The translations under genes and the position numbers were made by a program. A model generated the notes under the pieces. That model searched no databases, was not told the DNA's origin, and was given only the letters and a program-made list of their open reading frames with translations. Below are positions 23,343-37,739 of a stretch of DNA of 38,607 bases, in pieces (the first letter of the stretch is position 1; each line of letters opens with the position of its first letter). This stretch comes from Thermoproteota archaeon (GTDB taxonomy: Archaea > Asgardarchaeota > Jordiarchaeia > Jordiarchaeales > Freyrarchaeaceae), in NCBI GenBank assembly GCA_029258835.1, contig JAPDJY010000018.1, forward strand, positions 1-38,607, written 5' to 3'.

Positions 23343-23744
23343 TTAACTTAGAAGTGCTATCAAGCTCACCACTATGGTAAACATCGATATCAGCACTCCT
23401 AGAATAGTGAAGTAAAGCCGCAAGTTCCTGTAAAGCTCTTCAAACCGTTTATCCACGGCCTCAAACCGCTTATCCACGGCCTCAAACCGCTTATTTATGT
23501 CCTCGAACCTCCTGTTTATGTCCTCAAACCTTCTGTTCACGTCCTCAAATCTTTTGTTCACATCATCGAACCTTTTGTTCATGTCCTCGAACCGCTTGTT
23601 TACGTCGTCAAACCTTTTGTTTACGAGTTCAACCAGTATTTTTATGTCTTCTTTTGTGGCAACGTTCCTTAGAGGGAGTAGCCTTTCAAGCTCCCTCCTG
23701 ACTATCTCAACAACTTCAAGCTTTGCGGCGTCGGATAAACCCAT
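23343..23744 (-). CDS. Tail-anchored coiled-coil heptad-repeat protein
   Basis: ATKEDI followed by nine [VMI][ND][KR]RF[DE]x heptads and a C-terminal hydrophobic helix. Confidence 0.85.
   Translation of the reverse strand: MGLSDAAKLEVVEIVRRELERLLPLRNVATKEDIKILVELVNKRFDDVNKRFEDMNKRFDDVNKRFEDVNRRFEDINRRFEDINKRFEAVDKRFEAVDKRFEELYRNLRLYFTILGVLISMFTIVVSLIALLS
23436..23624 (-). repeat. Nine imperfect 21-bp coding tandem repeats
   Basis: Units such as CTCAAACCGCTTATCCACGGC on the + strand encode VDKRFEA/VNKRFED heptads on the - strand. Confidence 0.9.
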
Positions 23745-24371: not shown

Positions 24372-24667
24372 TCATAGAGGCGTTGAAGGAAGGAAGAAAG
24401 ATAAATGGGTACACGACGATCCTGAACCTAGTAGAGTTCCCGAAAGGACTTGAAGTCGAACTAGGAGTGTTGACTCCGTCGATCAAGGACTACCTTCTCG
24501 CCATCGAAATCTCGCAGACAATGGTGGAGCAGGGGACGCCAATCCCAGCAGTAGACACCGTAATATCTGCAGTCGCAATAAACAGAAAGCTTACCCTAGT
24601 AACCAAAGACAAACACTTCACCCTCGTACAGAGAGCATACCCAGAGCTAAAAATCAAGAGAGAATAA
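24335..24667 (+). CDS. vapC: VapC PIN-domain toxin (intact)
   Basis: [30 protein letters not shown]. Confidence 0.9.
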
Positions 24668-25413: not shown

Positions 25414-25692
25414 TTGATGAAGGCTAAAACTAGCGTGTACGTGGACAGGGATCTTTGGGAGAAGTTTAAGGTTCTGTCAGCTAGCAGGAAAACTGATGTA
25501 AGCAGTCTTTTAAAGGAGTTAATAAGGGAGGAGACGATGGAACAGCTTGACGAGGCTCTCTCAGAGCTCGGCTTGGAGAGCGGCGAGCTAGACTTTGAAC
25601 CTGTAAAGGTTTCTAAGCCTGTAAGTGGGCTGGTTAGGGTGATGAGAGACGAGAGGAGAGACGGTATATCTGGACTCCAGTGCGATTATTAA
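25414..25692 (+). CDS. VapB-type RHH antitoxin (intact)
   Basis: KTSVYVDRDLWEKFK..VSSLLKELIREE; C-terminal LVRVMRDERR overlaps the PIN gene. Confidence 0.8.
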   Translation: MMKAKTSVYVDRDLWEKFKVLSASRKTDVSSLLKELIREETMEQLDEALSELGLESGELDFEPVKVSKPVSGLVRVMRDERRDGISGLQCDY

Positions 25693-26298
25693 GAGATATT
25701 TTTCCGAGAAGGGAAGCAGTAGAGTGAGAGAGACATACTTGGAAGCTTACTCCGGTAAACTAACAGTATCCTACAGCATATGGAACATAGGCGAGGTTCC
25801 CGGCGTCATGGATAGAGCTAAAAGGCTTGGAATGATAAATGGCGAAGCTTACAGCACTGCTAGAAGCAGGTTTCTATCCGAGACGAGGCGGATGATCAGG
25901 CTTGGAATCGCCTTGCGAAACAGTTAAATATTTTGTATGTGTTTGTGAGTGCTGGTCTGGCCACAGGGTGGCCTAATGGGGTGGAGTCTTCGGATGTGGG
26001 GCTCCGGGGTTACCCCGAAAGCCCCATCAGAGGCCCATGCCTCGATGACGGGGAAACGCCTGACAGACCAACCACATTTACCCATAAAAACCTATCAAGC
26101 GTGAACCCCGTCCCCATACCCCTCAAAGTGAAGGTGCTGAGGGATGGCTGGAGGATCTTAGAGAAACACCACATATACGTAGCCGATGCTATACAGGTTT
26201 CCTCCGCTAAGCATGTACAAGCAGACATACTCCTCACAGGGGACAAGAAGCTGCATGATGTAGCCTTGAAGGAAGGAGTTAGAAGCGAGTTACTGTGA
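25649..26298 (+). pseudogene. vapC: VapC PIN toxin interrupted by the ~197-bp element; start codon reads ACG
   Basis: TVYLDSSAIIKRY..WNIGEV..RLGIA | insertion | VPIPLK..HIYVADAIQV..LLTGDKKL. Removing 25913-26109 restores one frame. Confidence 0.88.
25913..26109 (+). mobile_element. Non-autonomous mini-element copy 1, probable IS607- or IS200/IS605-derived (TnpB 3' end/omega-RNA)
   Basis: Aligns end to end with 37354-37552; disrupts vapC; no TIRs; CC at both junctions; remnant LRMWGSGVTPKAP..YQA-stop. Confidence 0.8.
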
Positions 26299-29420: not shown

Positions 29421-29848
29421 AGCTGGTTAAGCTTGCAGGGTCGTACATGAGGCAGGCGGAGGCAAGGGTTGAAGACGCAGAGGACGCCTACAACAAAGAA
29501 AACTACCCTTACGCGGTCAGGTTAAGCCAGGAGGCCGTTGAGTTGAGCCTTAAGGCATCGCTGCGCCTCGTCGGCATAGAGTACCCGAAAATCCACGACG
29601 TGTCCGACATCTTGGAAATCTCAGAGAACAGATTCCCTGAATGGTTCAGGGCGGAGATACCCTTCCTGGCAGAAACCTCTAGGAAACTGGCGAAGAAGAG
29701 AGATGTGAGCTTTTATGGTGGAGAGGAGGAACTGCTATCCCCCGAGGACCTGGTAAGCAGGGAGGACGCCGAGGATTCCGTGGAAAGAGCCAGAAAGACC
29801 GTCGAAACATGCAAGAAACTACTAGAACAGTACAAACAAATTTTATAG
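29417..29848 (+). CDS. HEPN-domain protein
   Basis: LSQEAVELSLKA, YPKIHDV, RDVSFYG, EDAEDSVERA; 4-nt overlap with the MNT gene. Confidence 0.9.
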   Translation: MKLVKLAGSYMRQAEARVEDAEDAYNKENYPYAVRLSQEAVELSLKASLRLVGIEYPKIHDVSDILEISENRFPEWFRAEIPFLAETSRKLAKKRDVSFYGGEEELLSPEDLVSREDAEDSVERARKTVETCKKLLEQYKQIL

Positions 29849-30480: not shown

Positions 30481-30919
30481 ACTAAGGCTTCTAGTCGATA
30501 CGAGCTTTCTCCTACCAGCAATGGGGGTAGAGACCGAGAGGGAAGTCATGGAAGCCATAAAGCACTTTCACACAGCCGAAGTGCACTATTTAGAGGTGAG
30601 CATTCTAGAAGCCATGTGGAAGATCATCAAGGTGGTTCCAGCCGGCAAGATTGGCAGGGTTAGGGAGGGGGTAGAGGCGATAATGGAGACGTACAGGCGG
30701 GTTACCCCCCACCCAGAAGCCTACATAGAAGCTTACAAGCTATACCGTGAAGGACACAGAGACTACATCGACAACCTGCTGTACGCTACCTCCCGGAAGA
30801 CGGGCCTCCTCCTTCTAACAGCGGACAGGGAGCTCATCGGATTCCTCGAGGAAAAAGGCTATCCCATAGACAATGTAGTGACGCCTAAGGAGGTGAAACG
30901 CGTAAGAGCAGCTACTTAA
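30449..30919 (+). CDS. vapC: VapC PIN-domain toxin (intact)
   Basis: LLVDTSFLLP, SILEA, HRDYIDNLLYAT, LLTADREL. TTG start at 30449 behind GAGGAGG. Confidence 0.88.
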   Translation: MSGRGGTSRSKLRLLVDTSFLLPAMGVETEREVMEAIKHFHTAEVHYLEVSILEAMWKIIKVVPAGKIGRVREGVEAIMETYRRVTPHPEAYIEAYKLYREGHRDYIDNLLYATSRKTGLLLLTADRELIGFLEEKGYPIDNVVTPKEVKRVRAAT

Positions 30920-36846: not shown

Positions 36847-37199
36847 TTATAATGGGATGCCCTCCTTTAACGCTTGTTTTATCAGGGTATTACCTTTCCT
36901 CTTCATTTCTTCTATTTCATTTAGGGTGTAGGCGGAGACGTCTACTGGGATGGGTGTTTCCATCTGGTATTCAGGTATTCTGTCGAAGAATCTCTCATGC
37001 GAGCTTTCCCTTAGGATTAAGAGGACGTCGGTGTCGCTTTTCAACCCGTAATCCCCCTGGCGATAGAGCCGAAAAGGATCACACCGAGCACCTCCGGGTG
37101 TTTCTCCTTAAGCTTCTCAGCAGCCTTCTTCAACTCCCTAAGAAGAGCCCTCCTGCTCCTGTACAAGTGCCTTGCATAAATCGAGGATTTTTCGGGCAT
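36847..37199 (-). pseudogene. MNT antitoxin with a 1-nt frameshift in a G homopolymer
   Basis: ILFGSIARG | DYGLKSDTDVLLIL. One extra G in the G5 run (37053-37057) restores GSxARGD..SDxD. Confidence 0.82.
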
Positions 37200-37739
37200 A
37201 ATCCACCGCCTCCTCAGCGTCCTTTCTAGTGTAATAGTCCACGGGGCCCCGCTCTCAAACCCGTTAGGATACCTTGTCGGAATGTAATACCTATCAAGGA
37301 TCTTGGCTAAATCCATAACCTCCTCCACCCCGTAATTGGCTTAAAGAAACGCCTTGCGAAGCAGTTAAATGTTTGGTAGGTGTTTGGGGTGCTGGTTTGG
37401 CCACGGGGTGGCCTGTGGGTGGAGTCTTCGGATGTGGGGCTCTGGGGTTACCCCGAATGCTCCATTAGAGGCGTATGCCTCGATGACAGGGAAACGCTTG
37501 ACAGACCAAAATCTCCACATTTACCTATAAAAGCCTATCAAGCGTGAACCCCAATATTTTACTTACACTATGCCCCCAGCATTCAACCCTTAACCGCTCA
37601 CATAAAGCCTTAACAGCCTTCTCGGCGCATTGCTGGCTTAAAAAGCAACCCACTCGTAAATTCCCCCATTAAAAGACAGCTTTGCTGCCTCCAAATCCCT
37701 CTCCGCCTGCCTAAGCCAGTCTCTACTACGGTCCAACAC
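37138..37739 (-). pseudogene. HEPN gene disrupted by the mini-element, two frameshifts and a stop
   Basis: DRSRDWLRQAERDL / CFLSQQCAEKAVKAL..WGHSV | insertion | LDRYYIPTRYPNG / DYYTRKDAEEAV. Confidence 0.88.
37354..37552 (+). mobile_element. Non-autonomous mini-element copy 2, antisense inside the HEPN gene
   Basis: Same ends (TTGCGAA ... TATCAAGCGTGAACCCC), hairpins and CGCC left flank as copy 1. Confidence 0.8.

Follow-up and report, generated by a model that had tools for sequence, protein, structure and literature searches.

Two interrupted toxin genes in the window

The window analysed here, a stretch of 38,607 nucleotides of archaeal DNA, contains two toxin genes of different families, vapC and a HEPN gene, each of them split by a copy of the same short repeat, hereafter called the mini-element, and each accompanied by an antitoxin gene. 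The features at both loci are as follows.

25414..25692, plus strand: vapB-like ribbon-helix-helix antitoxin gene; intact ORF with a weak RHH_1 match, the orthologous gene matching RHH_12
25649..25912, plus strand: vapC (PIN), N-terminal half; ACG at 25649-25651 where homologues start with ATG
25909..25912, plus strand: TAM-like CGCC of copy 1; host-gene DNA, codons ATC GCC
25913..26109, plus strand: 197-nt mini-element (copy 1), whose nt 76-197 correspond to the right end of a 1417-bp tnpB element
26110..26129, plus strand: predicted guide-encoding flank of copy 1, within the C-terminal half of vapC; judged from its position directly after the right end
26110..26298, plus strand: vapC (PIN), C-terminal half; PF01850 match, 3e-5
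36847..37199, minus strand: MNT-type nucleotidyltransferase (antitoxin) gene, NTP_transf_2; boundaries read from the sequence; frameshift in a G-run near 37052
37248..37353, minus strand: HEPN gene, C-terminal part; in-frame TAA at 37341-37343 and second frameshift near 37245-37255
37350..37353, plus strand: TAM-like CGCC of copy 2
37354..37552, plus strand: mini-element copy 2, 199 nt
37553..37572, plus strand: flank of copy 2 predicted to encode its guide, in antisense orientation to the HEPN gene; likewise judged from its position
37553..37736, minus strand: HEPN gene, N-terminal part, in two frames; 1-nt frameshift in a T-run near 37640

An initial annotation of this DNA had recognised the two repeat copies at 25913-26109 and 37354-37552, both on the plus strand, and had proposed that copy 1 splits vapC in sense and copy 2 a HEPN gene in antisense. 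Our analyses agree with it on all these points. The copies share 87% identity (E 2e-63), the C-terminal half of the first gene matches the Pfam PIN family and both halves are colinear with VapC homologues that are intact and 150 aa long, no gap being needed at RLGIA|VPIPLK, and the second gene matches PF05168 on the minus strand. In-silico excision restored the frame at both junctions exactly as had been written, the minus-strand HEPN junction reading ...HSVSKIL|AFL*ANYGVEEVMDLAKILDRYYIPTRYPN, and the right flanks are the very 20-mers that had been quoted. The additional lesions that had been reported in both genes were found as well, namely the ACG in place of the start ATG in vapC, and the TAA and two frameshifts in the HEPN gene. 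Owing to these defects, both alleles would stay dead after excision of the element. Some frameshifts coincide with homopolymer runs, where they may have arisen during assembly. In a contig of metagenome run X1, attributed to a related strain, one extra base after 37052 restores the frame of the MNT antitoxin gene, whose frameshift would thus reflect polymorphism between strains or else a mistake in the assembly.

Other TA-type genes in the window comprise a PIN fragment at 24488-24628, an intact-looking HEPN gene at 29444-29818 and an intact-looking PIN gene at 30491-30835. The presence of these further PIN and HEPN genes identifies the contig as a TA-rich island. Elsewhere in the window, positions 23405-23656 hold at least nine head-to-tail 21-nt units inside a minus-strand ORF (23343-23744, 133 aa), where they would encode a 7-residue protein repeat.

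The mini-element derives from a TnpB-only insertion sequence

Both copies on which the initial annotation relied are real, but its sample of two grows to about 30 when the whole genome is mapped. The genome (2.72 Mb in 91 contigs) harbours 23 full-length mini copies on 19 contigs, as well as seven further copies that match nt 76-197 only, each of them at the 3' end of a tnpB gene. Mini copies measure 193-204 nt and contain no ORF of their own of at least 20 aa, and the host frames stop inside the element. Their structure is that of a left end of about 75 nt followed by the terminal 122 nt of a 1417-bp parent element. Over nt 76-197 the identity with the 3' ends of seven tnpB elements amounts to 78-94%, and the left ends of mini-element and parent have the terminal GCC|TTGYG.A.C.GTT in common, with about 65% identity over roughly 35 nt, the likeness between mini-element and parent being weaker at the left end than at the right end. 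Copy 1 shows a GGCCAC/GTGGCC hairpin and a right-end scaffold terminating in GAACCCC, and the sequence TTAAATAT in the left end of the mini-element is a putative archaeal TATA-like box. The dispersed copies, the exact boundaries and the constant target motif are those of MITE/PATE-like elements, and the repeat is a MITE/PATE-like, protein-less derivative of a TnpB-only insertion sequence of the IS607 branch. The full mini-element was absent from 40 relative genomes, all of them from outside the genus of the window, where the only matches were right-end-like and came from two genomes of the same phylum.

The best-kept parent (1417 bp, C9:45669-47085) encodes a 394-aa protein with Pfam matches to Cas12f1-like_TNB (PF07282, 2.6e-17) and OrfB_IS605 (PF01385), and its alignment with the TnpB of ISDra2 shows that the D, E and D positions of the RuvC domain are kept. 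This is the one intact tnpB among seven parent copies, the others being frameshifted, truncated or cut by contig ends. Upstream of tnpB the parent carries a 64-aa HTH_17/MerR ORF (L024:273-464), which exhibits 40-56% identity to the N-termini of Resolvase-domain ORFs located beside other tnpB genes of the genome. ORFs homologous to it occur on C37, C29, C20, C2 and C65, with 63-87% identity in several copies. The 64-aa product corresponds to the DNA-binding head of an IS607 serine recombinase minus the catalytic domain, and may function as an end-binding or regulatory protein. A serine recombinase TnpA would combine the MerR-type HTH with a Resolvase catalytic domain, and only the HTH is left within the parent; since the catalytic domain is missing, the parent is non-autonomous and no full IS607 member.

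When the cognate recombinase was sought, neither the autonomous IS607-type loci nor the Y1 loci of this genome had right ends that fitted the covariance model described below, bar one weak match, and motif scans for the element ends were negative. The element contains no Y1 transposase gene; the two Y1 matches in the genome both have internal stops and lie in loci that lack this right end. The TnpB load of the genome is heavy, with about 25 tnpB-type genes of several families, and twelve Resolvase-domain matches were recorded, six of which are full-length IS607-type TnpA.

The right end as a predicted omega-RNA scaffold

The 122-nt right end overlaps the 3' end of tnpB and stops exactly where the similarity between copies stops. 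A covariance model built from the copies of this genome, and used to search other archaeal MAGs, detected this architecture immediately downstream of tnpB at 24 loci outside the present genome, which belong to MAGs of Desulfurococcaceae, Baldrarchaeota, Archaeoglobi, Brockarchaeota, Jordarchaeia, Bathyarchaeia and Nitrososphaeria. Compensatory changes were detected in 14 of the 23 base pairs, against 8.1 in shuffled alignments (0 of 500 shuffles reached 14) and 1-7 pairs in slid controls. The long stem just 5' of the terminal GAACCC(C) was especially well conserved as a structure, with all seven of its pairs covarying and 95% of the cells paired. On the basis of these patterns, the 122-nt right end is the predicted omega-RNA scaffold of the TnpB element. 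In metatranscriptome contigs of low depth, the right end continues into the flanks of two other copies, a weak hint of expression that may also reflect DNA carry-over, and only six low-depth contigs of one metatranscriptome fall on the stretch of the window.

Boundaries, target motif and family assignment

An NGCC motif, mostly YGCC, lies 5' of 33 of the 35 left ends, and the right ends terminate in CCCC. Among the 22 fully flanked mini copies the motif appeared as CGCC in 13 cases, TGCC in seven, and AGCC and CACC in one each. Exact excision restores not only vapC but also a P-type ATPase (...GVDEYYA|DLLPHEKV...), and from the seamless junctions in these two genes, which show no target duplication, it follows that the GCC is host DNA. 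The target motif and the terminus of the right end have the last two bases, CC, in common and differ at position -3 (G vs C). In the IS607 family, a comparable arrangement has been described, where the TAM is TGGG and the right end UCGG, position -3 protecting the occupied site, and where integration requires little beyond the core dinucleotide (PMC10690162). With its HTH ORF and a common core dinucleotide combined with a difference at -3, the parent looks like an IS607-branch element within the IS200/IS605/IS607 group.

The vapC insertion is preceded by TGCC instead of CGCC in three further assemblies (L075-L077, position ~3186, the orthologue of window position 25909). This is a synonymous change in the Ile codon, and position -4 of the motif is thus variable between assemblies at one and the same insertion site. 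At insertion sites of unclear context, a search for tRNA or other ncRNA targets gave just a neighbouring tRNA-Met about 70 nt from the copy at C2:74804, and no tRNA was restored by excision.

Genomic distribution of the insertions

Both flanks could be mapped at 27 sites, corresponding to 22 mini copies and five parents. Toxin genes are split at two of them, vapC and the HEPN gene, both in the window. Other clear gene disruptions affect a P-type ATPase (C40), which has a separate frameshift besides the insertion, a PLP-enzyme (PALP) fragment (C20) and a start codon (C46). The remaining copies are intergenic, and their neighbours include genes for M42 and A24 peptidases, ribosomal protein L10e, UbiA, AcnX, an HdrA/MvhD-like protein, AMP-binding enzymes, HerA and an ABC ATPase. 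The C46 copy (C46:14186-14385) sits within the start codon of a 145-aa membrane-protein ORF, whose ATG re-forms only upon excision. One parent (C29:9739-11153) terminates 2 nt beyond the point where a seemingly complete PIN gene of the other strand has its stop codon, and its predicted guide would be antisense to the 3' end of that gene.

About 30 PIN and about 22 HEPN genes account for 0.74% of the genome and 0.80% of its GCC sites. Under a uniform null, two toxin sites out of 27 have a probability of P = 0.02, which rises to P = 0.14-0.60 if just 10-30% of the genome tolerates insertions. The nominal enrichment therefore vanishes once lethal sites are excluded from the null, and with tolerated DNA as the reference, toxin genes show no excess of insertions. 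Concerning related elements in ten other archaeal MAGs, none of the ten annotated right flanks is a toxin gene; these flanks lie in or next to ASCH, alpha/beta-hydrolase, URO-D, radical-SAM, Rieske, luciferase-like, SIMPL, pyridine-nucleotide oxidoreductase and epimerase genes, with one MazE-type antitoxin among them. A search for second genomic targets of 29 guides, allowing up to four mismatches in 18 nt, yielded chance-level matches only, none of them after GCC. Apart from its own flank, no guide is closely matched anywhere in the genome, and hence no paralogous toxin is targeted.

Age of the insertions and search for empty sites

The mini copies are 83-92% identical to copy 1, the closest being the C12 copy with 92%. 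This degree of divergence between copies, together with the single intact tnpB, indicates that the element family is old. The vapC insertion and the ACG lesion recur in three further assemblies that share about 98% identity with the window, and three independent metagenomes yielded contigs spanning the border between flank and element at both window sites. The locus is represented in roughly 16 metagenomes.

Empty-site alleles, for which the initial annotation had proposed a search in reads or related genomes, were found neither in metagenome contigs nor in related genomes. The empty joints, 25912 to 26110 and 37353 to 37553, were absent from the contigs of three DNA metagenomes, in which rare variants would be hidden, and exact empty-junction patterns gave 0 matches in JGI metagenome contigs. 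The closest intact VapC homologue is just 66% identical, and the best match to the N-terminal half of VapC among the 40 relative genomes reaches 50%. Since contigs hide rare variants and the genus of the window is absent from the 40 relatives, these negatives are weak. In contigs of runs X1 and X5, position 26109 is joined to 37351, which gives a right end followed by GCC and a left end; such contigs could stem from two mini-elements in tandem or from a junction resembling that of an excision circle, and the same junction is absent from the assembly of this genome.

Origin of the mini-element and its proposed mobility and retention

TnpB reportedly works with an RNA whose guide is the transposon flank, on targets made up of the TAM and that flank, according to the work of Karvelis (2021) and Altae-Tran (2021). 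Applied to the elements described here, such a mechanism would start from the mini-element, which derives from the 1417-bp TnpB-only insertion sequence by retention of a short left end and the terminal 122 nt. It would be inserted and excised precisely at the CC core, 3' of NGCC, by a serine recombinase provided in trans. Read-through transcription, predicted to start about 25 nt past the TATA-like box and to stop 16-20 nt outside the right end, would append the right flank to the scaffold as a guide, and the resulting RNA could be loaded in trans onto the intact TnpB encoded on C9, which would then cut an excised or incoming allele reading NGCC plus the flank. The occupied site would be spared, as it reads CCCC plus the flank. 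Cleavage of the donor joint by TnpB is known to drive transposon retention, and protein-less PATE-like elements "often encode omega-RNAs" that are used in trans by TnpB (Meers 2023, PMC10055086).

It had been proposed in the initial annotation that the restored toxin alleles are the targets of the predicted guides. Under published TnpB biology this is a fair inference; what it does not support is a role specific to toxins, because the right flank as guide and the restored allele as target apply equally to every one of the about 30 copies.

Why two copies reside in toxin genes

The two repeats in the window are most probably old, fixed copies of a non-autonomous mini-transposon, and their presence in toxin genes most likely reflects neutral persistence in dispensable, decaying TA genes and not a policing of toxins. 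Insertions persist where they are harmless, which would account for the two copies in dispensable, decayed TA genes of a TA-rich island. The initial annotation had itself allowed that insertions may simply survive in dispensable genes, and this more cautious reading turns out to be the better one, with the copies elsewhere mostly intergenic and both interrupted genes otherwise broken. The insertions may have preceded or followed the other lesions.

The proposal that such insertions are favoured or maintained since their guides, carried by TnpB in trans, destroy or repress a restored or incoming toxin and thereby keep it permanently off seems quite improbable to us. It draws on the fact that both window copies split toxins and have guides within toxin coding sequence, on the third copy adjoining a PIN gene on C29, on the nominal P value under the uniform null, where PIN and HEPN genes make up 0.8% of the GCC sites, on the presence of TAM, scaffold and intact TnpB, and on the stability of the insertion across strains. 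However, an identical guide logic operates in all of the about 30 copies, 25 of the 27 fully flanked sites lie outside toxins, and no toxin was found at the ten annotated right flanks elsewhere. Moreover, the enrichment is lost under a null restricted to permissive space, the restored alleles would still be dead through the ACG, TAA and frameshifts, no guide matches a paralogous toxin gene, and the family is old, with one of seven tnpB genes intact. The toxin-specific lock advanced in the initial annotation is thus not supported by the distribution of the insertions, with no empty allele found in the contigs and genomes searched; other copies in intergenic or accessory DNA had been named there as the observation that would speak against it, and this is what the genome-wide map revealed. 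As to the stronger formulation in which the mini-elements in toxin genes serve as heritable TnpB guides that eliminate revertant or incoming intact toxin alleles, we consider it highly improbable. If it were true, the elements would constitute a transposon-based safeguard against re-acquired toxins or TA-bearing mobile DNA.

A preference of the element for accessory or TA-rich islands, or for highly transcribed or accessible DNA, could also have produced the toxin hits as a by-product. The two toxin sites are only 11 kb apart on one contig, which also holds the additional PIN gene, PIN fragment and HEPN gene described above. This regional bias is nonetheless unlikely, considering that the window copies are not nearest relatives (87% identity between them, 92% between copy 1 and the C12 copy), which leaves no room for local hopping, that other copies lie beside housekeeping genes, such as those for ribosomal protein L10e, an ABC ATPase, an HdrA-like protein and AMP-binding enzymes, and that published IS607 integration demands little more than the core dinucleotide (PMC10690162). 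Finally, hardly any credence can be given to the idea that the repeat is another structured RNA, intron-like or regulatory, which resembles a tnpB end by chance. In its favour, no Rfam family matched the element, either at gathering thresholds or at permissive E-values. Nevertheless, the 78-94% identity of nt 76-197 to seven tnpB 3' ends, the occurrence of the left-end terminal TTGYG.A.C.GTT also in the parent, and the exact boundaries, the constant motif and the seamless way in which unrelated genes are interrupted, whatever the strand, effectively refute a non-transposon origin. Neutral persistence of an old mini-transposon is therefore the reading that we retain for both window copies. The retention mechanism has already been published, and the window copies, as a special case of it, open no new question. 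What they add is an archaeal example of a mini-transposon that would combine a promoter with a guide RNA, derived from an IS607-like TnpB element and represented by about 30 datable insertions with a YGCC motif and a 122-nt scaffold, which could be of use in cataloguing TnpB/omega-RNA diversity and in the search for thermophilic compact editors.

Relationship to known systems

The closest counterparts of the mini-element are the PATE-like minimal elements of the IS605 family (PMC10055086), which are likewise protein-less, about 200 bp long, composed of the two ends and an omega-RNA scaffold, and present in many copies per genome. As is predicted for the mini-element, they need TnpB and a transposase in trans, have the guide after the right end and present the donor joint as target. 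In contrast, the element described here belongs to an uncultured hydrothermal archaeon, its parent looks to be of the IS607 type (serine recombinase) and not of the Y1-TnpA type, and its left end bears the putative archaeal TATA-like box.

With the IS607 IStron of Clostridium botulinum (Zedaveinyte et al., PMC10690162), the present family shares a TAM and right end with common last two bases (TGGG/UCGG there, YGCC/CCCC here), a mismatch at -3 that would spare the occupied site, precise excision and a MerR-type HTH upstream of tnpB. Unlike the IStron, the parent retains only the 64-aa HTH, has no catalytic serine-recombinase domain and is non-autonomous; there is no group I intron, and the core is CC on the guide strand.

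The ISDra2 TnpB/omega-RNA complex (PDB 8EXA, 8H1J) resembles the system in the D-E-D triad of RuvC, in the zinc-ribbon TNB, and in a guide RNA whose sequence extends across the 3' end of tnpB as far as the right end. The proteins are nevertheless only distantly related, with E 2e-8 across the RuvC half, the TAM is TTGAT there and YGCC here, and the scaffold described here corresponds to no Rfam model. The nuclease-dead TldR repressors (Wiegand et al., PMC10705468), as RNA-guided TnpB relatives able to switch a gene off, offer the closest precedent for a lock in which the restored allele would be bound and not cut. In contrast to TldR, the TnpB of the parent keeps all three RuvC residues and resides in a mobile element, and the predicted guides match their own flanks only, which are without a TAM while the site is occupied.
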